From NCBI GenBank assembly GCA_001782235.1, contig MFOC01000003.1:1-45850 (forward strand): a stretch of 45,850 nt of DNA, in the 5' to 3' direction. The DNA is from Candidatus Levybacteria bacterium RIFCSPHIGHO2_02_FULL_40_18. Its GTDB lineage: Bacteria; Patescibacteriota; Microgenomatia; Levybacterales; GWA1-39-11. The notes under the pieces were generated by a model. It worked only from the letters and a program-made list of their open reading frames with translations. It was not told where the DNA came from and made no database searches. Made by a program: the position numbers and the translations under genes. Positions 1 to 45,850 of the stretch are shown here, in pieces (positions within the stretch are counted from its first letter, which is position 1; each line of letters starts with the position of its first letter).

Positions 1-2641
1 CGCCTGATAGAGAAAGTGTTGTGATGCCTGAAAGAGCGCCTGCGGTTGAGACATCAAATGCTGTAGAATCAAGTGAGAAACTGTCTCCATTATCACCTAG
101 GTCTATCTGTCCATTGGCATCAAGAGCGCCATTGGCTGTCAAAGTTCCTGAAACAGTAAGGGAGCTTGAAGCTGTTGTTGCATCGGAAAGTGTAATTGAG
201 GAAGAACCCGAATCTATGACTATGTTTCCTGTGTCTGAGGTACCAAGAGTTAGGGTCTGCATTGCAGTTGTAGATAATGTTCCTGTTGCATTAAGATATG
301 ATCCTCCTGCCGCTCCTGCAGATAGTGTTGCCGTGGGGGTACCCGAGTTTACATTTAGAATTGCAAATTTGGCAGAAGATGAGGCTTGTCCTCCTATTGC
401 AAAGTCCACAGTCGAATTATTCGCAAATAATACGCCTGAGCCTTGATTCCAGAAGGCATCGATACTTCCGCTATCACAGGAGCCCCATGAGGGCGCAGAT
501 GCTCCTGAAACAAGACATAAGTTCTGGGTGTCAGTTGATGCTCCTGCAAGCTGTCCTGTTGATACAGTTGCATATATAACGTTATTGTTTGCATTAAATG
601 TTGAGAAGGTAATAATACCATCTGCTGTAATATTTCCTAATCCTGTTGCATTTCCTGTAGTTCCTATATCCCAGTCTGAGGAATCAATTGCAACAGTGTC
701 CCCATTGTCCCCCAGCGTTACTACTCCATTGGCGTCAAGGATTTCGTTTGCGGTAAATGTACCTGCTACTGTTAGAGTTGATGAGGCGGTTGTTGCATCG
801 GATAGAGTAATCGAAGAACTTCCCGAGTCTATCACTATATTTCCCGTAGCTGAGCCTCCCAGAGTTAAGGTTTGCTGGGCAGTTGTTGAGAGAGTACCTG
901 TTGCCGAAAGGTAAGCCCCTCCTGCCGCTCCTGCAGATAGCGTTGCTGTTGGAGTACCGGAATTTACATTAAGAACGGCAAACTTGGCTGAGGTTGTGGC
1001 TGTTCCGCCTATTCCAAAATCAACTGTTAGGTTGTTTGGAAATAGTAAGCCTGCAGAGCTTTGCTGCCAGAATGCGTCTGTTCCCGTTCCTTCACAAGAA
1101 CCAAAGAAAGGTATTGCACCTCCCAATAAACATTGCGTGGAGCTTCCGGCAGTGACTTGTTGAAGCACTCCTGAGCCATTTGTATATAGAACGCCACCGT
1201 TTGATGTAAAAGTGGACATGACTATAGATGTTGCACCAAGAGTGATTTGATCTGAGGCAAAGGCAAGTGTTGGATCGGTTGCGCCTGCATTAAATGTCCA
1301 AGTGAAGCCCGAGCCTGATCCAAAAGTCGCGTCCGAGATTTCCGTTGTGTCAAGGTTGACAGTAACTGTGTCTGTTGAGCCTGCAACCGTATCTATACCG
1401 TTTGTTCCGCCAGCTATGGTAATAGTGTCTGAATCGGTTATTGTTTGAGTGGTACCTGAGTCTCCGGCAAGCGAAAAGGTCGTGATTCCTCCGCTCCCCC
1501 CACTGTCAAGCTGCTCCCAAGTGTTGGCGCTCGTACAAGCTTTGACCGTATTGTCAGTGTCATTGAAGTAGATGTCGCCTGCTGTACAGGTCGAAGGATC
1601 TCCTGTTGACCCTTTGTCTGATAATCTAACAGTCCCATAGGATCCCGAATCAACAATCGTAAATAGCGTATTTGTTCCGTCTTTAAAGGCCAAAGTTCCG
1701 CCGCCTGCAAGATTAAGCACGCCTGACGTATCTGAAAGCGTTAAGTTCCCTCCAACGGTTAGTCCGCCGGAAAATGTGGTGGCTGTTGAAGTGGTTGCTC
1801 CCCGGCCGGTAACTGTTGCCAAAGTGTCTGCTTCTGAAGTCAAAGCACTTGATGAGATTGTAACTGTTTTGTCGGATTCGGATGTTGAAACGGATACGCT
1901 ACCGTTTCCCTTCAAACTTATGTCTCCGATTGTATTATTTAGAGTTAGTACGCCGTTGTTTGATATAGTTGGCGTCTGTCCAGTACTAATCAGGACGCCA
2001 CTACCAGAAGCCACTCCATAAAGCAAATTTGATGCAAAAACCGAACCATCTCCTGCATCTATATCGGCTCCACCCGTAACTATTCCCCCAACAGCCTGAA
2101 TTTGTCCTAAAAATGCGGCATCTTCCTCAAACTCGCTTGGTATATTGACCAAAAATGTAGGATTGAGTCCCTCTGTTGCGGCCGCTAAAATCTCTCTCCC
2201 CTGCGATAAAGTTTCTTCTTGACCCTTGGGGGCAAGATTTTTAATGCCTCCAAAATAATCTCCCGCACGGCCTAAAACCAGAAGGCCTCCGAGAGAGCTC
2301 AGGGTAACAAATGAAGCGATAGTGAGAACTAACCCTGCTTTGCGGGCCAAATTCTTAGCGTCTTTTGATCTTTTCTCCCAGTCAATTATTGATGGACTTG
2401 ATTGTTGCGCTGGGGACTCGGGGAAGATAAGTTCTTGAGAGGACCTTGGGTTAAACTCAACTTCTACTCCAAGTTCCCGGTTCGTTTTAAAATTTTCAAT
2501 TTGGGATTTAAGATAGCGCCTTTGGTTTCCAGCGGTTCTTTGGGGAACAAAAATCCCTCGAGCCTCCCAACGTCTCAAAGTTTTGGGCGAGACTCCTAAA
2601 AGTTTTCCTGCCTCCTGAATTGACAGGAGTTTATCTTGCAT
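1..2641 (-). CDS. Giant surface repeat protein (C-terminus beyond the window edge): N-terminal MerR/excisionase-type HTH, one TM helix, then Gly/Ser/Thr-rich extracellular repeats
   Basis: My translation of the minus strand from the ATG (complement of 2639-2641) stays open to base 1. It is missing from the ORF track only because no stop lies in the window. The N-terminus MQDKLLSIQEAGKLLGVSPKTLRRWEARGIFVPQRTAGNQRRY is HTH_17/MerR-like. AGLVLTIASFVTLSSLGGLLVL is a TM helix. There are two ~207-aa tandem units (FWQQSSAGLLFPNN...NSGTPTATLSAGAAGG and FWNQGSGVLFANN...NSGTPTATLSAGAAGG). Plus-strand ORFs 21-446, 528-914 and 1776-2021 are its antisense shadows. Confidence 0.85.
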   Translation of the reverse strand, partial: MQDKLLSIQEAGKLLGVSPKTLRRWEARGIFVPQRTAGNQRRYLKSQIENFKTNRELGVEVEFNPRSSQELIFPESPAQQSSPSIIDWEKRSKDAKNLARKAGLVLTIASFVTLSSLGGLLVLGRAGDYFGGIKNLAPKGQEETLSQGREILAAATEGLNPTFLVNIPSEFEEDAAFLGQIQAVGGIVTGGADIDAGDGSVFASNLLYGVASGSGVLISTGQTPTISNNGVLTLNNTIGDISLKGNGSVSVSTSESDKTVTISSSALTSEADTLATVTGRGATTSTATTFSGGLTVGGNLTLSDTSGVLNLAGGGTLAFKDGTNTLFTIVDSGSYGTVRLSDKGSTGDPSTCTAGDIYFNDTDNTVKACTSANTWEQLDSGGSGGITTFSLAGDSGTTQTITDSDTITIAGGTNGIDTVAGSTDTVTVNLDTTEISDATFGSGSGFTWTFNAGATDPTLAFASDQITLGATSIVMSTFTSNGGVLYTNGSGVLQQVTAGSSTQCLLGGAIPFFGSCEGTGTDAFWQQSSAGLLFPNNLTVDFGIGGTATTSAKFAVLNVNSGTPTATLSAGAAGGAYLSATGTLSTTAQQTLTLGGSATGNIVIDSGSSSITLSDATTASSTLTVAGTFTANEILDANGVVTLGDNGDTVAIDSSDWDIGTTGNATGLGNITADGIITFSTFNANNNVIYATVSTGQLAGASTDTQNLCLVSGASAPSWGSCDSGSIDAFWNQGSGVLFANNSTVDFAIGGQASSSAKFAILNVNSGTPTATLSAGAAGGSYLNATGTLSTTAMQTLTLGTSDTGNIVIDSGSSSITLSDATTASSSLTVSGTLTANGALDANGQIDLGDNGDSFSLDSTAFDVSTAGALSGITTLSLSG

Positions 2642-24170: not shown

Positions 24171-25370
24171 ATGAAAAGAATTTTGATCTCTGGTATTCTC
24201 ATTGGGCTTTTTATCACCTTAGGCTCGATTGCTGCCATTCTCTATGCCACAGGCTATAGAATTTCATTAAACGGCGGTTCTGACGGGAAAATCATAGCAG
24301 GCACAGGTCTTCTTGTTGCAACATCTAGGCCGGATGGAGCTCGTCTTCTCATAAACAACAACCTTACAACCGCAACCAATAATACAATCAATCTAAAACC
24401 GGGCGAATATGATGCCAGAATTGAAAAAGACGGATATCTGCCATGGAGTAAGAAGATAATAATTAAAAACGGCCTTGTTTCTGAGGCAAATGCCTTTCTT
24501 TTCCCGGTTGCCCCAAAGCTTGAGGCCGTAACAACAATTGGCGTCTTAAACGTTACTATGGATCGTTCGGGTTCGATTCTTGCGTATGCTGTTGCCTCAG
24601 CGTCTGCCTCAAGAAACGGGATATATGTTCTTGACATGAACGCAAGGAATCTGATATTCCTTGCCGCAACGGGCACGCAGATTGTTGGGGATATTCAAGA
24701 TAAGTTCTCGCAAGCACAAGAACTCTCATTCTCACCTGATGGCCGCGAACTTCTTGTAAAACTTACGAATAGTGTATATTATCTTTTGGCCACAGACTCA
24801 AGAAACCAAAACCCATCCGATGTGACTAATACTCTTCTTGCGGTACAAAGAGATTGGGAGCAACAAAGAACCGAGCTTGATAAGAAGATAATGGATTCTA
24901 TGTCACGTGATCTTAGAAACGTTGCGCTAACGCACTTTAAGAACATAATACCGTCTCCTGAGGGTGATAAATTGCTTTATGAAGCATCAGTTAGCGCAAA
25001 ACTTCCAATTGTGCTCAGGAAACCCGTTCCTTCTGTTAATTCTACACCTGACGAGAGAAATCTTGTAGCGGGAAGAACTTATATTTATGATGTCCGCGAA
25101 GATAAGAACTACTTTATTTTAGACCCCGATCAAATTGGGGCTGATAATCGGAATAAATATCTGTGGCATCCTGACGGGCGACATTTGATTTTTGCCAGGA
25201 GTGGGAAAATAAATATTGTTGAGTATGACGGCGGAAATCTAACAACGGTTTACAATGGCCCGTTTCTTGACAATTTGGTCTTCCCATGGCCGGACGGCTC
25301 AAGTATAACTATAGTAACAAGGCTGTCCGAAAGCGCCCCCCACAACATCTACCGAATTAGCCTCCAATAA
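24171..25370 (+). CDS. PEGA domain protein with TolB-like beta-propeller region
   Basis: N-terminal TM helix. PEGA-like PDGARLLINNNLTTATNNTINLKPGEYDARIEKDGYLPW. Later FSPDGRELLV and WHPDGRHLIF repeats are typical of WD40-like/TolB blades. Confidence 0.7.
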   Translation: MKRILISGILIGLFITLGSIAAILYATGYRISLNGGSDGKIIAGTGLLVATSRPDGARLLINNNLTTATNNTINLKPGEYDARIEKDGYLPWSKKIIIKNGLVSEANAFLFPVAPKLEAVTTIGVLNVTMDRSGSILAYAVASASASRNGIYVLDMNARNLIFLAATGTQIVGDIQDKFSQAQELSFSPDGRELLVKLTNSVYYLLATDSRNQNPSDVTNTLLAVQRDWEQQRTELDKKIMDSMSRDLRNVALTHFKNIIPSPEGDKLLYEASVSAKLPIVLRKPVPSVNSTPDERNLVAGRTYIYDVREDKNYFILDPDQIGADNRNKYLWHPDGRHLIFARSGKINIVEYDGGNLTTVYNGPFLDNLVFPWPDGSSITIVTRLSESAPHNIYRISLQ

Positions 25371-25454
25371 TCAAGGGGTATCAAAAGTATCAAGGGCACA
25401 GGGGAGCTTGAGTTTGAATTCGAGTAAGATAAATAGTATACTTCTTGACTACGT

Positions 25455-39419: not shown

Positions 39420-40055
39420 ATGAGGTTTTTCGCTCAGTCAGCTACTTTGCTTTTAGCATCGAGTCTTGTTTTGATTATAATCTCCACCCCTCTTTCAGGC
39501 TATATGGTTCCAATACTTGGTTTCATAATAGCTTTTTCAGTCATACTTATTGTTATTCGACAAAGAACCCGATCGCGCCTGCCTGCCGACAGGCAGGGCG
39601 AGGAGCTATTCGTTGGCTCAAACAAAGAGGTGTTTACGATCACACTTGCCCTTCTTCTTGCCATATTTTTAACAGGCGGAATTAATTCAAATCTTTTCTT
39701 TTTGCTATACTTTATTCTTTTTGGAATTGTATTTCTCTTTGAGCCCGCGACCGTTTTTGTGCTAGTTGTGGGCTTCGGGCTTGTGTTCTTCCAGTCTCTG
39801 GGGGAAGGGGATTTGATTGGAAATCTTGTTAAGCTTGGATCTTTAGCATTTCTATCTCCTATCTGCTACTTTTTCGGTCGAGAATTCCAAAAAACAAGAA
39901 AGCTATCCGAGGAAGTTGAAGATAAAACCGGCCAGATCATTGAGGATGCCGAGACGCTCAAATCTCATATGCGAAACCAAGATGAAATTGAAGAAATTGA
40001 AGATATAGAAGATCAAGCGGAAGAACTCCGCAAGGAATCGGAAGAAAACGAATGA
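39420..40055 (+). CDS. Polytopic membrane protein with a highly acidic C-terminal tail
   Basis: Internal ATG of track ORF 39315-40055 (MRFFAQSATLLLASSLVLII...). Tail EIEEIEDIEDQAEELRKESEENE. A perfect 8-bp palindrome is inserted in frame (RSRLPADRQGEE). The stop overlaps the next start (ATGA). Confidence 0.65.
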   Translation: MRFFAQSATLLLASSLVLIIISTPLSGYMVPILGFIIAFSVILIVIRQRTRSRLPADRQGEELFVGSNKEVFTITLALLLAIFLTGGINSNLFFLLYFILFGIVFLFEPATVFVLVVGFGLVFFQSLGEGDLIGNLVKLGSLAFLSPICYFFGREFQKTRKLSEEVEDKTGQIIEDAETLKSHMRNQDEIEEIEDIEDQAEELRKESEENE

Positions 40056-40744
40056 AAGCCGCAGGCGCAATGATATCTTTAGTTATATTTATAGTCATTT
40101 TTATATCCCCTGCTTCTGCTGTAACAATGCATGGAAGTCAGTATGTAATTGAATCTGATATTAATTCTTCTGGAAGAAAATCAACCGAAACCTCGGGGAA
40201 AATTGGCACAAACTATAAAGTTCGAGCCGGTTTCCAATATGTAAACTCCATAATGCCCTTCACTTTTTCCATATCAACTACTAACATTAACTTTGGCACG
40301 CTGGTTCCGGGCGAACCTGTTACTCGAGATAATACTTTAACTGTCTCGCACGGCTCGGCCCCGGGATACCAGGTGAATCTTGAGAAAAACCATCCATTAA
40401 GAATATCTTCAACGAACATTGATATTCCAGACACAACCTGTGAGGCCGGAAATTGTTCGCATACGCAACCGGGGGCTTGGACTTCTCTCTTAACCTATGG
40501 ATTTGGATATAGATGCGACAATCTGTCAGGAACAGATTGCGACCCGGGTTTTACAACTTCAAGAGACTACTTTAAACAGTTTCCGACTGCCGAAACAAAT
40601 GAATCCTCTCAAGTTGTTATGAGTAGTACCAATGCAAGTATAAAACCAACGGCAAAGATCAGCTATAAAGTGAATATCTCCGCAAGTCAAGCTAGAGGTA
40701 TATATCAAAATATAATAAAGTATATCGCAACTCCTTCCATATAA
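40052..40744 (+). CDS. Secreted protein, possibly a distant WxL-domain-like surface protein
   Basis: Signal peptide ISLVIFIVIFISPASA. FTFSISTTNINFGTLVPGEPVTRDNTLTVSHGSAPGYQVNLE and the C-terminal ARGIYQNIIKYIATPSI resemble the two WxL motifs, with Y in place of W. By eye only. Confidence 0.45.
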   Translation: MKAAGAMISLVIFIVIFISPASAVTMHGSQYVIESDINSSGRKSTETSGKIGTNYKVRAGFQYVNSIMPFTFSISTTNINFGTLVPGEPVTRDNTLTVSHGSAPGYQVNLEKNHPLRISSTNIDIPDTTCEAGNCSHTQPGAWTSLLTYGFGYRCDNLSGTDCDPGFTTSRDYFKQFPTAETNESSQVVMSSTNASIKPTAKISYKVNISASQARGIYQNIIKYIATPSI

Positions 40745-41163: not shown

Positions 41164-42159
41164 ATGAAAAAGGTTCTCTGGCTTTTGGCTTTTGGCTTTT
41201 GGCTTTTGGCCCTTATGTTTCCGATTGTCTATTCTATTCCCTTAAGCGTAAGCGCTCAAAAAAACAAAGGCCAGTTCTCGCTTGGTATTTATCCGCCGAT
41301 TTTTGAAATCAACGCGCAAGCTCCGGCAAATATAGACGCCAAAATTAATATCCAAAATTTAAGCGAGTTCAGCCAGAACCTATCAATCACCTTCAAGTCT
41401 TTCAGGCCGGACGAAAAGGGAGACGGAACCCTTAGGTATGAAGCTGCCCCCCCAACCCTTCAGAAAATTAAGGTTTACGATGGAGAAAATCCTTTGGAAC
41501 AAATCACGCTTGATCCCTTTGAGTCCCGTGATCTTGCTCTTAAGATGGATATCGAGTCTAATACGCCCGGGGGTGATTATTACTTTTCAGTAATCTTTTT
41601 GTCGCAAGAGAATCAAGACTCAAAGATTTCTCAATCTAAAATAACCGGAGGGATAGGCACTAATGTAATACTGTCAGTTGGCAGGAAAGGCCCTTTCAGG
41701 GGACAAATTAAGGAGTTCAGCATCCCCCGCCTTGTAACTCACGGCCCCGTACCTATTACTTTACTACTTGCGAATAATAGCAGTTACTATTTAAATCCGA
41801 CAGGCAGAATAATTATTCAAGATATGTTTCACAGAGAAGCGGGACAAATTAATATTTTACCTCAATATGTTCTTGCTAATTCTTCTCGCTTTATGAAAGA
41901 TTCTGATCAAGCCTCTCCAACCTTCGAGCGTGCGGCTCAAATCGAAAGGTTAGAGAGCGACCATCCTGTTTTAATCTGGCCCGAAACGTTTCTCTTTGGA
42001 CTATACACAGCCTATGCCCATATTAAACTATCCGAGAATGGACCGGTATTTGAAACTAAGGCTAGTTTTATCGCCATACCGGCTTATATGCTCTTTGCTA
42101 TTTCATTCTTGGCCTTTGTCCTTATCGGAATATACCTTCGCGTGAAAAAGAAAATCTAA
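41164..42159 (+). CDS. Surface protein with C-terminal TM anchor, DUF916/DUF3324-like (partner of WxL proteins in Firmicutes)
   Basis: Signal peptide. FSLGIYPPIFEINAQAPANIDAKINIQNLSEFSQNLSITF resembles the start of DUF916. C-terminal AIPAYMLFAISFLAFVLIGIYLRVKKKI is an anchor. A heptanucleotide repeat lies in the signal-peptide codons. Confidence 0.5.
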   Translation: MKKVLWLLAFGFWLLALMFPIVYSIPLSVSAQKNKGQFSLGIYPPIFEINAQAPANIDAKINIQNLSEFSQNLSITFKSFRPDEKGDGTLRYEAAPPTLQKIKVYDGENPLEQITLDPFESRDLALKMDIESNTPGGDYYFSVIFLSQENQDSKISQSKITGGIGTNVILSVGRKGPFRGQIKEFSIPRLVTHGPVPITLLLANNSSYYLNPTGRIIIQDMFHREAGQINILPQYVLANSSRFMKDSDQASPTFERAAQIERLESDHPVLIWPETFLFGLYTAYAHIKLSENGPVFETKASFIAIPAYMLFAISFLAFVLIGIYLRVKKKI

Positions 42160-42391: not shown

Positions 42392-45300
42392 ATGAAAGAC
42401 ATGAACAGGCTGCCTGATTTACTTAGAAATTATCTTCTGTCAAAGAAGGCTTTTTCGCCGTTAACTTCTAAAAACTACGTCTCAGACATTCGAAAGTTCA
42501 TACATTGGTTTGAGCAATCGTTCGGCAAAAACTTCCAGGCGCAAGACTTCACTCCCGATGTAATTACTTTGTTTGAAAAAACGCACGGCGCAATAATCAC
42601 CCCTGATGCCCCTGATACTCTTGATACTCGTGATACCCTTAGGATTTCTTCTCGCTCATTCAAGAGATACTTTTCTTCCCTTCGAAAATTTGCCTTATTT
42701 CTTGTTGAGGAGGGTTATCTTGAAGAGAATCCTTTTAACAAACTAATGGCCAAAAGCCAACAATCAAGAACTAAACAAGATCCGTGGTTTTTAAAAGACT
42801 TTAAGGACTACCTTTACATATTCGGAGCTTCTAATCTAACTATTAAAAACTACTTAGTTGATCTAAATGCTTTTACAAACTGGGCTGAGAATGCTTTTAA
42901 AACCGATCTAAATATATCAAAAGATTACATTTCAAGCATAACATCTGAGATAATAGATGCGTATAAACAACGGCTCATCTTACTCCTAAGACTATCCCCT
43001 AAAACAGTAAATAGGAAACTTTCATCAATCAGGAAATACCTTGAGTTTGCCTCTTCACGAGGATACATTGGCAGGCAATTTCCAATTTCCCCCTCGGCTT
43101 CGCTCGGGGCAGGCAATTTCCCCGACTTCCCCAAGGCTTCTCGGGGAGAGCAATTTCGAATTTCAGAAGAGGGAATGAAGCTTCAAGATATTGAAGAAGA
43201 AGAAACCGGTCAAACGTCCCAGTCAAAGGGCGGTCAGCCTTTGGCAGAAAAAATACCGCCTGTCAGATTGCTTCAAAGACTGCTAACTCCCTACGTTTTT
43301 TTTGAAGATATTATCGCTTCAAAAATTGCCGAATTAATTAAGCATAAAAAGTTGTCACGTAAAGCCGAGATCAGCTCGAATCGGCTCCCAATCAGCGTAG
43401 ATCAGAAAATAAAAAATATTCCCGCGCGTATTCCGTTGCACAAACAGCTGATTTATCACGCAAGATATACACGACCTAAATGGTACAAAACATATCACAG
43501 TTATTCATTTTCCCATTACTTTCACTTGGCTATCCTTATCATTTACGCCTCTATTGTAGGATTTCTTATATACAATAATCTTTTTCCAGAGCCTTCCCAA
43601 ACAGCTCTTGCGGTACCTGCTGGGGCTAAAAAAGTCCTGTCTTTCCAGGGAAGACTTACGGACTCAAGCGATAATCCAATTACGAATCCAACAGATATAA
43701 GGTTTGCATTATATGAAAACGCAACCGCAACGGGATCTGCTCTTCTTTGGCAAGAGGTACATCATGCTCTTACCCCCTCAAAGGATGGGGTTTTCTCAAT
43801 TCTACTCGGAACTAAAAATGACATTGACGGCAGTCTGTTCCGTGACCATGACCTTCTTTGGCTTGGGATTTCGGTTGGTACGACCCAGGAGCTTATCCCG
43901 CGTCAAAGAATTGCCGCTGTTTCCTACGCGGCAAATTCTGAAACTCTTTCCGGAATGCTGTCCATAACCGACCCAAGCGCGGGAGCGACCAACGTAGTTC
44001 TTGCACTCGACTCCTCCGGAAAATTAACCATGGGAGGAACGGCTTCTCCTACTTTTGCCGCAACCGGCGGGAGATTTAAGCTCTCAGGAACCACACTTTC
44101 ACTCTCGACAGAGGAAAGTTCTAGCGGTGATGTGGATATTTCACCGGACGGCATAGGCAAAATAGATTTGCAAAAACCTATCATTAATGATACGGCCAAT
44201 GGCAATCTTTCGGGAGGTGCAGTTGAGATAAATGACAAGGTCGCGATTTTGGCAACCGAATCCGCAGTTGCTGCTTTCGTTATAAATAATATGGACGTTG
44301 GTGATCTAATCACGGCTTCTGCCTCAGGTATACAAAGATTTACTTTGGCCAATGATGGCGATCTTACCCTCAACGGAGCAGATACAATTACTGCATCCTC
44401 TCTTTCAACATTTACTACCGCGGAAATTCTTTCATTTTCACAAGATTTAGCCATATTGGGTAATGATATAACCAACGCTACGCTCAATCTTGGTGGGGGA
44501 GGAGCCGCAACGCTAGGCACAGTATCAGATGACAATCTAACAATTACTCCTAATGGTAACGGAGAGCTGACATTAACATCTGACTTTGACACCGGTGTCA
44601 ACATAGGAGCATCAACAAACACCCAGGCGCTATTGTCGATCTCAGGAGGAATAGGATCCAATGCCGCGTTAATAGTCAATCAAACAAATTCAGGAGATAT
44701 ATTTTCCGCATCTTCTTCAGGGACTACAAAATTTGTATTGGGAAGTTCGGGCACAATCACTCTTACTTCTGGCATTGCCGAATCTTCCTCAGGACAATAT
44801 CTTTGCATAGATACGACAACCTATGAAGTTGGACGAAGCAACGCCGCCTGCTCGGCGTCTTCTGAGCGCTTCAAAGAAAATATTAAGAACCTTTCCTTGG
44901 GTCTTGATGAAGTTATGAATCTTCGTCCGGTAACCTTTACTTTTAAGCCTGGATTGAACCTTGGAAGTGACAGCGAAGTCGGATTTATAGCAGAAGAGGT
45001 TGAGAAAGTTATCCCTGAACTTGTTTCTTATGATAGGGAGGGCCGCCCGTCCGGCGTCAATTATCCCAATATGACCGCGCTTTTAACTCGTGCAATACAA
45101 GAACTCGCACAAAAACTTGAGACAACAACTCAATCTTTCACTACTATGGGTGGGCAAGACCTCCGTGACTATATCTCGCAACTCATTAACGAAGCTATAA
45201 GTCAAAAGTCACAAGTTATAAACCCCTTGGCAAGTATTGAACAGATCCATACAAATGTAATTTCGCCGCTCTCACAAGGTTCGGAAATTGCAGTTTCTCT

Positions 45301-45850
45301 GGATGGTTCTAAATTCAAAATTCATGAATCAACTGCAATAGGCTCAGCAGTTGTTGCGTCAATCGACAATCAGGGAAACGCCCGCTTTTCCGGAGACCTT
45401 GAAGCGAGGCGAGCCACTTTCAGCGGTCAGTTGTCAGCAGAGAGCCTTCAGTCTGAAAGAGCTTCCGTATCAGGCGAATTAACAGTCGATAATGTGACTG
45501 CTAATCAAGCGTCGGTTTCAGGAACTTTGTTTGCGGACAGAATCATTGCCAACGATATAGAGGGTCTTGATGATCGAATTGCAACCGTTGCAGGAAGCCT
45601 TCAGAGTGGTCAGTGGTCAGTTGTTACTGGTCAGTTGTTGGATATCGAATCGATATCCTCTGATTTTGCAACATTTCGAGCCGGTCTGATATCTTTAGGA
45701 CCTGCTACCTTTGCGCAAGCGACAGTCCTTGATAGCTTATCTATTGGAACCTCCCTTGTGCTTGGTCCCAACTCAATTGATACTCTGGGTCAGACTCTTG
45801 AAATCCAACCACTCAAACAAGGTGCAATATCATTTATGGCAGGTTTAGTA
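42392..45850 (+). CDS. Giant surface protein (C-terminus beyond the window edge): two integrase-type SAM-like core-binding domains, TM helix, fibre-like ectodomain with a peptidase S74 / intramolecular-chaperone (tail-fibre) domain
   Basis: My translation from ATG 42392 stays open to 45850 (1153 codons), so it is absent from the ORF track. SAM-like 1: LLRNYLLSKKAFSPLTSKNYVSDIRKFIHWFEQ...SFKRYFSSLRKFALFLVEEGYLEENPF. SAM-like 2: FKDYLYIFGASNLTIKNYLVDLNAFTNW...SPKTVNRKLSSIRKYLEFASSRGYI. TM helix FHLAILIIYASIVGFLIY. S74-like SSERFKENIKNLSLGLDEVMNLRPVTFTFKPG...VGFIAEEVEKVIPELVSYDREGRPSGVNYPNMTALL. Confidence 0.85.
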   Translation, partial: MKDMNRLPDLLRNYLLSKKAFSPLTSKNYVSDIRKFIHWFEQSFGKNFQAQDFTPDVITLFEKTHGAIITPDAPDTLDTRDTLRISSRSFKRYFSSLRKFALFLVEEGYLEENPFNKLMAKSQQSRTKQDPWFLKDFKDYLYIFGASNLTIKNYLVDLNAFTNWAENAFKTDLNISKDYISSITSEIIDAYKQRLILLLRLSPKTVNRKLSSIRKYLEFASSRGYIGRQFPISPSASLGAGNFPDFPKASRGEQFRISEEGMKLQDIEEEETGQTSQSKGGQPLAEKIPPVRLLQRLLTPYVFFEDIIASKIAELIKHKKLSRKAEISSNRLPISVDQKIKNIPARIPLHKQLIYHARYTRPKWYKTYHSYSFSHYFHLAILIIYASIVGFLIYNNLFPEPSQTALAVPAGAKKVLSFQGRLTDSSDNPITNPTDIRFALYENATATGSALLWQEVHHALTPSKDGVFSILLGTKNDIDGSLFRDHDLLWLGISVGTTQELIPRQRIAAVSYAANSETLSGMLSITDPSAGATNVVLALDSSGKLTMGGTASPTFAATGGRFKLSGTTLSLSTEESSSGDVDISPDGIGKIDLQKPIINDTANGNLSGGAVEINDKVAILATESAVAAFVINNMDVGDLITASASGIQRFTLANDGDLTLNGADTITASSLSTFTTAEILSFSQDLAILGNDITNATLNLGGGGAATLGTVSDDNLTITPNGNGELTLTSDFDTGVNIGASTNTQALLSISGGIGSNAALIVNQTNSGDIFSASSSGTTKFVLGSSGTITLTSGIAESSSGQYLCIDTTTYEVGRSNAACSASSERFKENIKNLSLGLDEVMNLRPVTFTFKPGLNLGSDSEVGFIAEEVEKVIPELVSYDREGRPSGVNYPNMTALLTRAIQELAQKLETTTQSFTTMGGQDLRDYISQLINEAISQKSQVINPLASIEQIHTNVISPLSQGSEIAVSLDGSKFKIHESTAIGSAVVASIDNQGNARFSGDLEARRATFSGQLSAESLQSERASVSGELTVDNVTANQASVSGTLFADRIIANDIEGLDDRIATVAGSLQSGQWSVVTGQLLDIESISSDFATFRAGLISLGPATFAQATVLDSLSIGTSLVLGPNSIDTLGQTLEIQPLKQGAISFMAGLV

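Follow-up and report, generated by a model that had tools for sequence, protein, structure and literature searches.

How can one protein of a very small groundwater bacterium begin like a site-specific integrase and continue like a phage tail fibre, and what would such a protein do in the cell? This question is raised by a gene at the end of a 45,850-nt stretch of DNA (the window), which comprises positions 1–45850 of contig C3 of a 995 kb genome in 7 contigs; close relatives of the encoded protein are named Candidatus Levybacteria, of the Candidate Phyla Radiation (CPR), in source records. In our reading, the gene probably encodes a membrane-anchored homotrimeric adhesion fibre with a cytoplasmic nucleic-acid-binding head. 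The domain order, conservation and synteny of the gene, an intact catalytic dyad and support for a trimer were obtained by computation, and we infer the topology, the self-cleavage of the Peptidase_S74 (S74) domain, adhesion and DNA binding. The parts, i.e. phage-type fibre, S74, core-binding domain and Pam-like locus, are already known; new, as far as our literature searches reached, is a protein in which a tandem core-binding head, predicted to be cytoplasmic, is joined through an invariant juxtamembrane motif and a signal anchor to a fibre with S74 in internal position.

Full-length gene and domain order

The open reading frame (ORF) of the fibre starts at 42392 on the plus strand, is still open at the window end at 45850 and closes with a stop at contig position 46387. 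Thus, 1153 aa are encoded inside the window and 537 nt lie beyond it. An earlier reading made from the letters of the window (the sequence-only reading) had called the protein giant and proposed to recover the full-length gene; the recovered protein of 1331 aa is large, not giant. Four metagenomic DNA runs were compared, and contigs of three of them, possibly the source of the assembly, carry the gene without any difference; nothing suggests a broken or chimeric gene.

From the N- to the C-terminus, the protein comprises two SAM-like domains, an acidic linker, an amphipathic helix (H1), a basic segment with the motif RPxWY, a transmembrane (TM) helix, a beta-rich base resembling that of mosaic adhesive trimer (MAT) fibres, a Gly/Ser/Thr shaft, the S74 domain and a C-terminal module of ~440 aa. 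Domain limits were taken from profile searches, AlphaFold2 (AF2) models with their predicted local distance difference test (pLDDT) values, hydrophobicity on the Kyte-Doolittle (KD) scale, isoelectric points (pI), composition and conservation:

42392..42766, plus strand: core-binding (SAM-like) domain 1, aa 1-125 (NCBIfam XerC model, AF2, invariant residues)
42605..42640, plus strand: four tandem 9-nt units (NNTGATACN) within a variable loop, aa 65-86, reading DAP-DTL-DTR-DTL in frame
42791..43072, plus strand: core-binding (SAM-like) domain 2, aa 134-227 (Pfam PF02899 and PF13495, AF2)
43073..43252, plus strand: acidic disordered linker, aa 228-287 (pLDDT, pI, low identity)
43256..43378, plus strand: long amphipathic helix H1, aa 289-329, after a conserved PPxRLxQ motif (AF2)
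43424..43516, plus strand: basic juxtamembrane segment, aa 345-375, motif RYTRPKWYKTYHSY (conservation, charge)
43517..43576, plus strand: predicted single TM helix, aa 376-395 (KD, AF2)
43622..43813, plus strand: beta-rich fibre base (LSFQGRLTD...NPIT...LLWQE), aa 411-474 (Bdello_MAT_N match, AF2)
43814..44836, plus strand: Gly/Ser/Thr-rich shaft, aa 475-815 (composition; no family match)
44858..45106, plus strand: Peptidase_S74 chaperone/autoprotease domain, aa 823-905, with Ser823 and Lys828 (PF13884, fold)
45107..45850, plus strand: C-terminal module, predicted to be trimeric, aa 906-1153 in the window and on to aa 1331 at contig position 46387 (homologue search, trimer model)

For comparison, a whole-protein search returned 308 proteins at E ≤ 1e-3 among 7997 scored, of which 120 were listed, all with E < 1e-160 and a length of 1212–2300 aa. 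Counts of relatives out of 120 or 116 given below refer to these best 120 of the 308 matches, the 116 used for hydrophobicity being those that could be placed in register by the RPxWY motif. Compared with 19 full-length relatives, identity was 0.63 in the TM helix, 0.60 in the first shaft half (aa 481–650), 0.56 in the terminal knob, 0.54 in the base and 0.53 in core-binding domain 2; the lowest values were found in the variable shaft part aa 651–815 (0.26), the acidic linker (0.12) and the insertion loop of domain 1 (0.12).

Tandem core-binding domains of the head

Two tandem phage-integrase SAM-like N-terminal domains, not followed by a tyrosine-recombinase catalytic domain, had been described in the sequence-only reading, and both parts of this description were borne out by profile searches of the head. 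In the Pfam search, Phage_int_SAM_1 (PF02899) matched two stretches of the protein (E 3e-15, best at aa 134–224) and SAM_4 (PF13495) matched aa 133–214. Of the NCBIfam models, XerC matched at aa 13–125 (E 1e-17) and a tyrosine-recombinase model at aa 134–227, the Xer models aligning through their first ~100 profile positions only. All 36 aligned relatives match XerC/XerD models, likewise with the N-terminal part only, and one of the 36 matches the FliZ model. The two domains share 30% identity over 91 aa (E 2e-9), which points to a tandem duplication. No match to the catalytic domain PF00589 was found in the fibre protein by Pfam, and a six-frame search of the whole genome located this domain only at C4:144616 and C7:41440, neither of them near the fibre gene.

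These results bear on the view that the gene belongs to a mobile element as its site-specific integrase or XerD, or else to a prophage as a tail-fibre gene. The sources do label relatives as 'site-specific integrase' or 'XerD', and the S74 and end domains described below are phage-like. Nevertheless, we regard this view as highly improbable given the lack of a catalytic domain in the protein or any nearby frame, the XerC match of 64 bits against a cut-off of 335, and the position of the gene, which throughout the order is single-copy and keeps its place between leuS and rho, not in a prophage. The labels 'site-specific integrase' and 'XerD' are wrong.

An AF2 model of the head, built on an alignment of 36 orthologous N-termini, reached pLDDT values of 90–96 for both domains (~95 for domain 1 outside its loop). 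The best Foldseek matches of this model in the PDB are core-binding domains, namely those of XerA (5hxy, prob 1.0, root-mean-square deviation (rmsd) 2.4 over 85 residues), Brujita Int, XerD, 3nrw (target TM score (TMt) 0.70) and lambda Int (2oxo, TMt 0.66). Invariant among the 36 aligned sequences are Y29, D32, F36 and R92 in domain 1 (36/36) and K152, Y154, D157, Y191, L195 and R208 in domain 2, and both domains retain the core-binding pattern TxKNYxxDIxxFxxW and RxxSSLRKF. Both are basic, with a pI of 9.4 and 9.7 here and medians of 9.2 and 9.3 among the 36 aligned relatives. The linker behind them has a pLDDT below 50 for aa 233–287 and a pI of 4.6.

The top PDB match of the head alignment profile (E 5e-10) is chain 14 of 9i5v, a ribosome-bound protein of P. 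gingivalis of 401 aa, deposited as RaiA, with an Xer-like core-binding N-terminus. In PMC12123416, only 34 residues of this chain are modelled, and for this reason the match was dropped as a clue to a role of core-binding domains on ribosomes.

Membrane anchor and predicted topology

A single TM helix after a linker of ~150 aa had been proposed, and a single hydrophobic segment was indeed found at aa 376–395. It contains FHLAILIIYASIVGFLIY (from aa 377), the only 19-aa stretch above 1.5 on the KD scale in all 1331 aa (KD 2.05); AF2 modelled a helix at aa 372–397 (pLDDT 81–95), and the KD value is at least 1.6 in 111 of the 116 relatives. In front of it lies the RPxWY motif, which was found in 116 of the 120 listed matches; W364 and Y365 are invariant and R361 and P362 conserved in at least 90% of the 36 aligned relatives. 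The juxtamembrane segment carries a net charge of +8 (median +8, range 4–12 among the 36 aligned relatives), and the 90 aa beyond the TM helix carry a net charge of −3, which is also the median of these relatives. A hydrophobic N-terminal stretch or signal was found in the head of none of the 116 relatives in register. Charge and hydrophobicity together favour a signal anchor of the type N-terminus in and C-terminus out, so that by the positive-inside rule the head would lie in the cytoplasm and the fibre outside. This agrees with the sides assigned in the sequence-only reading, with a small doubt that stems from H1.

If H1 spanned the membrane, head and fibre would be on the same side. Such a hairpin of H1 and TM helix, with the core-binding domains as well as the fibre outside the cell, could draw on the hydrophobicity of H1 in part of the family, where its KD value is at least 1.6 in 30 of the 116 relatives and at least 2.0 in 5, and on the loop between H1 and TM helix, which is very basic, as an inside loop would be. 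We consider it very unlikely, since H1 is amphipathic here (maximum KD 1.06, PYVFFEDIIASKIAELI; family median 1.13), an N-terminal signal sequence occurs in 0 of the 116 relatives, and export of a basic head of ~280 aa without a signal sequence is unusual. AF2 modelled H1 as one helix at aa 289–329 (pLDDT 69–78), followed by a short disordered stretch and two small helices before the TM helix. With the head placed inside, H1 is read as an amphipathic helix lying on the membrane and the hairpin as a minor rival.

Fibre base, shaft and S74 domain

The base forms a four-stranded beta domain in the AF2 model (aa 416–472, pLDDT 84–95), which would be located just outside the membrane. Its aa 411–474 match the NCBIfam family Bdello_MAT_N (NF053851) at 25 bits where the cut-off is 60 (E 1e-5), the alignment covering 63 of the 162 positions of the profile; of 36 relatives, 14 reach E ≤ 1e-3 with the same family (best 7e-8).

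The base is also the place where the first ~400 residues might end as a long pre-sequence, with a cut of the signal-peptidase type between ALA and V (aa ~403–406, in the family 'ALAA-P') separating the fibre from head and TM stub. In the Bdellovibrio MAT proteins the homologous base directly follows a cleaved signal peptide (PMC10769870), and in the Levybacteria family a small-x-small motif is seen repeatedly 10–16 residues behind the hydrophobic core, immediately ahead of the conserved RILSFQGRLTD. However, only one Ala column reaches a majority in the alignment, a fibre set free in this way would have to be anchored by other means, for which no candidate was found, and gene forms consisting of the head only are indistinguishable from ORFs truncated at contig ends. 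In addition, the distance from the hydrophobic core to the cut exceeds the usual c-region of signal peptides, which is shorter. In sum, we hold processing of this kind to be unlikely and keep to an uncleaved signal anchor.

The shaft (aa 475–815) has no match in Pfam or NCBIfam. It is followed by the S74 or intramolecular chaperone domain, whose presence within the fibre had been suggested and was substantiated by a PF13884 match above the curated cut-off (aa 823–878, DNA 44858–45025, E 6e-13, 49 bits against 22). Ser823 and Lys828 are intact and invariant in 20 of 20 full-length relatives. In structural comparisons with VIA-align, the fold resembles the ICA domain of MyRF (7dc3, Z 8.1, rmsd 2.0 over 96 residues), endoNF (3gw6, Z 6.8), T5 pb1 (4uw8, Z 6.0) and GA-1 (Z 5.6).

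Tail-fibre profiles of PHROG match aa 819–933 by their extreme C-termini (profile positions 533–626 of 636, 395–483 of 489 and 361–482 of 484). The profiles thus end at S74, from which it follows that the domain is terminal in phages. In the protein studied here, 453 residues come after the Pfam match. The sequence-only reading had noted an internal S74 domain with at least 250 residues behind it as unusual; the extension is real, and the internal position is no oddity of this gene, it is the rule of the family. By a home-made hidden Markov model of the region, S74 was detected in 29 of the 120 listed relatives, always with 358–554 residues after it.

C-terminal module and trimer model

A search with aa 890–1331 gave 116 proteins at E ≤ 1e-3 among 8000 scored, and this module corresponds to no NCBIfam and no Pfam family. 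The matches include relatives with Peptidase_G2 in place of S74, relatives without a detected chaperone, some without the head, and the protein P0190 described below. An initial assumption that the C-terminal halves of the relatives are unrelated was wrong, the last ~440 residues being common to S74 and Peptidase_G2 members.

As a monomer, aa 781–1331 were modelled poorly by AF2 (pLDDT 53.8), and only S74 and the last 90 aa were usable. As a trimer, aa 1000–1331 gave ipSAE values of 0.86, 0.85 and 0.86, the best of three controls reaching 0.00, with ~1440–1490 contacts, at least 97% contact agreement between runs and pLDDT values of 85–86. The mark applied to the trimer is reached by 20 of 30 proteins solved as same-chain pairs and by 1 of 23 solved as single chains, a calibration that is rough here, being built on two copies with their own alignments versus three copies with a custom alignment. 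According to these models, S74 would sit mid-way in one continuous trimeric fibre.

The last 83 residues (aa 1249–1331) form a beta-sandwich in the model that resembles the C-terminal domains of phage depolymerase tailspikes (VIA-align: 9k4a, Z 9.1, rmsd 1.8 over 70 residues, 21% identity; 7w1c, Z 8.5; 7eea, Z 7.3). The idea of a pilin domain in this knob was dropped; the terminal 117 aa showed no similarity to the pilin-like neighbour (E 5.4).

As a further observation, CPR fibres with diverse N-terminal halves (kelch repeats, collagen, HTH heads) share the terminal motif '...SFTVG...(I/F)(K/Q/P/D/T/N)FN(W/F)(I/L/W)(I/V/L)(I/V)N', which is followed by the stop. It corresponds to aa 1300–1331 (C3:46289-46384) and was seen in the relatives P0128, P0141, P0145, P0153, P0162, P0164, P0167 and P0190.

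A second fibre with another DNA-binding-type head

The protein at the other window edge had been said to couple a DNA-binding-type head to a surface structure as well, and this arrangement was found. ORF 2..2641 on the minus strand encodes a MerR/HTH_17 head (aa 7–57), one TM helix (aa 104–123) and then a Gly/Ser/Thr fibre. The relative P0190 carries two HTH_17/MerR domains in tandem, then a TM helix, collagen repeats and S74, and it shares the C-terminal module described above. Since paralogous fibres carry an unrelated DNA-binding fold at the same position, nucleic-acid binding suggests itself as the common property, and this analogy with the MerR/HTH_17 fibre of the same genome is the strongest argument for a nucleic-acid-binding head.

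The second fibre ORF runs off the start of contig C3. Contig C6 starts inside a similar shaft ORF (C6:3-3445), which crosses a gap of 27 N; at its end come a stretch like Peptidase_G2 ('ADYAEWYE') and again the shared C-terminal module (E 4e-24). Probably C3 and C6 join, with the missing C-terminal half of the second fibre at the start of C6.

Alternatively, the head might bind no DNA, and the core-binding-like domains might interact in the cytoplasm with a protein of the cytoskeleton or of an export or assembly machinery, or serve for positioning relative to it, with the fibre unchanged. A model for this is RodZ, whose HTH domain reportedly binds MreB. Such a role would agree with the lack of a DNA target or repeat near the gene and with the finding that the most conserved cytoplasmic element is RPxWY (116/120 listed), which is also present in headless relatives of the phylum, e.g. 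in genome L018; from the latter it follows that the membrane-proximal machinery does not need the head. On the other side, both domains keep the core-binding pattern and a basic character across the family, and the paralogous fibres carry MerR/HTH_17 in the same place, sometimes in tandem. A protein partner is thus a serious but clearly less probable alternative, and nucleic-acid binding remains our preferred reading of the head.

Family and distribution

In a hand tally of Pfam matches among the 120 listed relatives, PF02899 was present in 120, PF13884 in 28, PF11962 in 40, and neither of the latter two in 52. A search with the head only gave 777 clusters (50% identity) at E ≤ 1e-3, 263 at 1e-10 and 76 at 1e-30. 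In each of the 150 clusters listed of the 777, the head begins no later than residue 36, the proteins being 151–5432 aa long and the short head proteins being indistinguishable from truncated gene calls.

A search with its first 450 aa finds a single copy of the gene in this genome. Within the order, 151 genomes were sampled and 123 of them have a match (108 among the 130 high-quality ones), as do 65 of the 73 genera; open frames with matching first 450 aa reach 7115 aa in the order. Phylum-wide, the first 450 aa were matched in only 15 of 301 genomes, and the complete head with anchor is found in few phylum genomes, of the same class. In other genomes the block of anchor and base occurs alone; in L018, for instance, the protein starts ~25 residues before RPxWY. 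Because anchor and base are present without the head in these relatives, the head looks like a later, lineage-specific addition to an older signal-anchored fibre.

Locus and neighbouring genes

Running from leuS (minus strand) to rho, the locus encodes in this order a polytopic protein of 246 aa, a secreted one of 230 aa, a protein of 331 aa with signal peptide and C-terminal TM helix, the fibre, a polytopic TPR protein of 702 aa and a LysM-M23 peptidase. Directly upstream of the fibre gene are:

40052..40744, plus strand: gene of 230 aa, secreted, PamT/Pam-pilin-like (sub-cut-off profile match, synteny)
41164..42159, plus strand: gene of 331 aa, signal peptide and C-terminal TM helix, candidate membrane-anchored pilus chaperone, DUF916/WxLIP-like (layout, synteny, ESM Atlas look-alikes)

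Of the 36 loci examined, 28 have the 331-aa gene. Among the 20 loci with long flanks, 18 carry the 331-aa gene, 18 the 230-aa gene and 10 the 702-aa gene; elsewhere, the fibre gene or a contig end fills the space of the latter. The 230-aa protein matches CPR_Pam_pilin_C with E 1e-6 and 28.8 bits against a cut-off of 55, and 13 of 16 orthologues match PamT or Pam_pilin_C at E ≤ 1e-3 (best 4e-12), all below the cut-offs. The 331-aa protein shows the layout, signal peptide plus C-terminal TM helix, that is described for the PapD-like chaperones PamC and PamD in PMC13278184; its look-alikes in the ESM Atlas include a 'putative DUF916' protein (TM score 0.73), a lead only, of DUF916/WxLIP type. From these matches the locus appears to be a minimal Pam-like locus with a single pilin gene.

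The 702-aa protein is encoded directly after the fibre gene at C3:46427-48535 (L002:6427-8535). It has a C-terminal TPR part, and its N-terminal 470 aa have O-antigen-ligase (Wzy_C)/PglL-type look-alikes in the ESM Atlas, again a lead only; it may glycosylate the Ser/Thr-rich fibre or the pilin. A promoter scan of the locus was uninformative (28 promoter-like sites versus 20.7 ± 3.9 expected), and a terminator scan revealed no clear terminator between the locus genes.

Repeat array in the loop of domain 1

An in-frame insertion of repeated words interrupting the first SAM-like domain had been reported, and four 9-nt units are present at 42605–42640, i.e. GAT GCC CCT, GAT ACT CTT, GAT ACT CGT and GAT ACC CTT, which encode D72–L83. 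They are, however, placed in a loop that varies in length among orthologues. This loop lies between two helices of domain 1, has no secondary structure in the AF2 model (pLDDT ~70–78), and is empty in many orthologues and differently filled in others. The same words had been noticed in the spacer at 25370–25399, where the reverse-complement word GTATCAAG is present.

In the genome, GTATCAAG was counted 64 times versus ~30 expected, and there are 7 arrays of at least three GTATCA words at exact 9-nt spacing. Array sites are 42605–42640 and 25370–25399 in the window and C2:164330, C3:73945, C4:125503, C4:142007, C7:10993 and C7:19352; at least two of the arrays other than 42605–42640 lie within long ORFs and also read as D-T-x repeats. 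Separate metagenome contigs match 42599–42641 only, with unrelated flanks. No insertion or deletion in the 9-nt array was found among the contigs of the three metagenome runs carrying the gene, which are identical and possibly the source of the assembly. The 'insertion' is a small dispersed repeat that a surface loop tolerates.

Independently of this array, ~33 nt inside the gene (window 45605–45639) are matched by short, very deep metagenome contigs with unrelated flanks. Word depth at this site is ~496 in run X3 and ~330 in run X13, versus 12 and 3 elsewhere, and the site is a short sequence common to the gene and some abundant DNA.

Comparison with known systems

The MAT fibres of Bdellovibrio bacteriovorus (Caulton et al. 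2024, PMC10769870) are likewise long surface fibres with a conserved beta-rich domain proximal to the cell, to whose model the base gives the weak, sub-cut-off match described above, and with a division of the family into S74 and non-S74 members; the N-terminal MAT domain comes after a signal peptide and is assumed to be located at the cell surface. Unlike the MATs, which have a cleaved signal peptide and end at S74, the Levybacteria protein begins with a head of ~375 aa, predicted to be cytoplasmic, and a TM helix, and runs ~430–450 aa beyond S74.

With phage fibres and tailspikes (K1F endosialidase 3gw6, T5 pb1 4uw8, GA-1 3gud), the protein has in common the S74 fold, the Ser/Lys dyad and, in the model, an intertwined trimer, and with depolymerase tailspikes (K64-1 S2-4 9k4a, K1 lyase 7w1c) the terminal beta-sandwich. 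In phages, however, S74 is last and shed, whereas here it is internal in 29 of 29 S74 relatives, and the protein is a cellular one with a predicted membrane anchor, not a virion component.

The eukaryotic membrane-bound transcription factor MYRF has an internal ICA (S74) domain (PMC3742443, PMC3742440, PMC8326128) and also unites a DNA-binding-type domain, a TM helix and internal S74/ICA in one chain; its ICA is the best fold match of our S74 domain. The order differs, being DNA-binding domain, ICA and TM helix in MYRF, where cleavage frees the DNA-binding domain on the cytoplasmic side, and DNA-binding-type domain, TM helix, fibre and ICA here. With S74 across the membrane from the head, cleavage could not free the head, and the release mechanism of MYRF would be inapplicable.

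The head resembles FliZ of E. coli (PMC3367168) in using core-binding-like structure while lacking a catalytic domain; FliZ has been studied by experiment and is a DNA-binding regulator. It is small, soluble and has one such domain; here there are two, in one chain with a surface fibre and with a predicted membrane tether.

A preprint on the CPR Pam pilus (Troman et al. 2026, PMC13278184) reports that pam operons are consistently accompanied by a 'tail fibre-like protein'. The fibre gene studied here also lies in a CPR-specific locus, behind PamT-like pilin and chaperone-like genes. This locus has only one Pam-like pilin gene, however, and its Pam matches are sub-cut-off; the preprint names co-location only, and the words 'integrase' and 'S74' are absent from its text. 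Literature searches on Levybacteria integrases and surface, on the Pam pilus and PamT, and on CPR S74 and tail fibres, the main text of the Pam preprint included and its supplements being outside the scope, gave no description of a core-binding-headed fibre.

In general layout, the protein is also reminiscent of bitopic regulators. Those of the ToxR/CadC type consist of a cytoplasmic DNA-binding domain at the N-terminus, a single TM helix and a domain outside the membrane, and domain order and charge predict the same sequence of parts here. The DNA-binding fold is another one, and the outside part would be a fibre of ~930 aa, not a sensor domain.

Proposed model

In the model that we favour, a bitopic protein of the Candidatus Levybacteria cell, with its N-terminus inside and its C-terminus outside, would form a phage-tail-fibre-like surface fibre, in which the conserved beta-rich base sits at the membrane and the Gly/Ser/Thr shaft leads outward. 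The S74 chaperone would nucleate trimer folding and probably cleave itself at Ser823, leaving aa 1–823 anchored and a trimeric tip of 508 aa freed or held non-covalently. A second intertwined trimeric segment would end in the tailspike-type beta-sandwich knob, the likely ligand-binding tip for a host or substrate. Inside, each chain would contribute two basic core-binding domains, joined to the membrane by the flexible acidic linker, the amphipathic helix and RPxWY, so that a trimer would present six core-binding domains at the inner face of the envelope. The head may bind nucleic acid as the core-binding domain of FliZ does without a catalytic domain; a tether, a membrane-bound regulator or something else are candidate purposes of such binding. 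With the PamT-like pilin, the membrane-anchored chaperone-like protein, the fibre and the O-antigen-ligase-like TPR membrane protein, the locus would be a surface-filament set, most likely for attachment to a host cell or substrate.

Several points weigh against this model. No DNA target or partner for the head was found, and in the 232-nt upstream spacer a search for a conserved repeat gave matches of 9–11 nt of chance size only. Foldseek with the multi-domain head model returned nothing at E ≤ 1e-3 (best 0.028, top range 0.03–0.6 with prob ~1.0). Placing head and fibre on opposite sides relies on the positive-inside rule, and in the minority of relatives with a hydrophobic H1 this helix lies ~100 aa before the TM helix. 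At the S74 site the protein has SSERFK in place of SDxxxK (SDxRxK in the family consensus, SDxxxK in the MAT paper), by which the efficiency of cleavage may be affected. The pass of the trimer model could stem from likeness to solved phage fibres. All MAT_N and Pam-family matches are below the curated cut-offs, and the 331-aa protein has no Pfam or NCBIfam match, nor has any of seven orthologues (0/7).

Significance

For annotation, the consequence is that hundreds of relatives named 'site-specific integrase' or 'XerD' inflate the counts of mobile elements in CPR genomes. The family is instead an envelope gene that nearly all genomes of one large CPR order carry in a single copy. It is built of phage fibre parts, and its locus appears to be related to that of the recently described Pam pilus. 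Among bacterial adhesins, a tandem recombinase-type cytoplasmic head has no described counterpart within the literature searched. CPR bacteria are thought to live attached to other cells, and the way in which a host is recognised and held is mostly unexplained.

If the head binds DNA, the cell surface would be physically linked to the chromosome or to gene control. A further step, which we put forward as a speculative and rather improbable idea, is a contact sensor, in which the state of the fibre (bound, pulled or S74-cleaved) would be passed via the TM helix and RPxWY to the six core-binding domains, which would hold or release chromosomal DNA or promoters. If true, an ultra-small episymbiont would couple attachment to its host directly with gene expression or with the organisation of the nucleoid, no signalling pathway of its own being needed in between, and the second DNA-binding fold in the paralogues, MerR/HTH_17 and also in tandem, would make this a general design of CPR bacteria.

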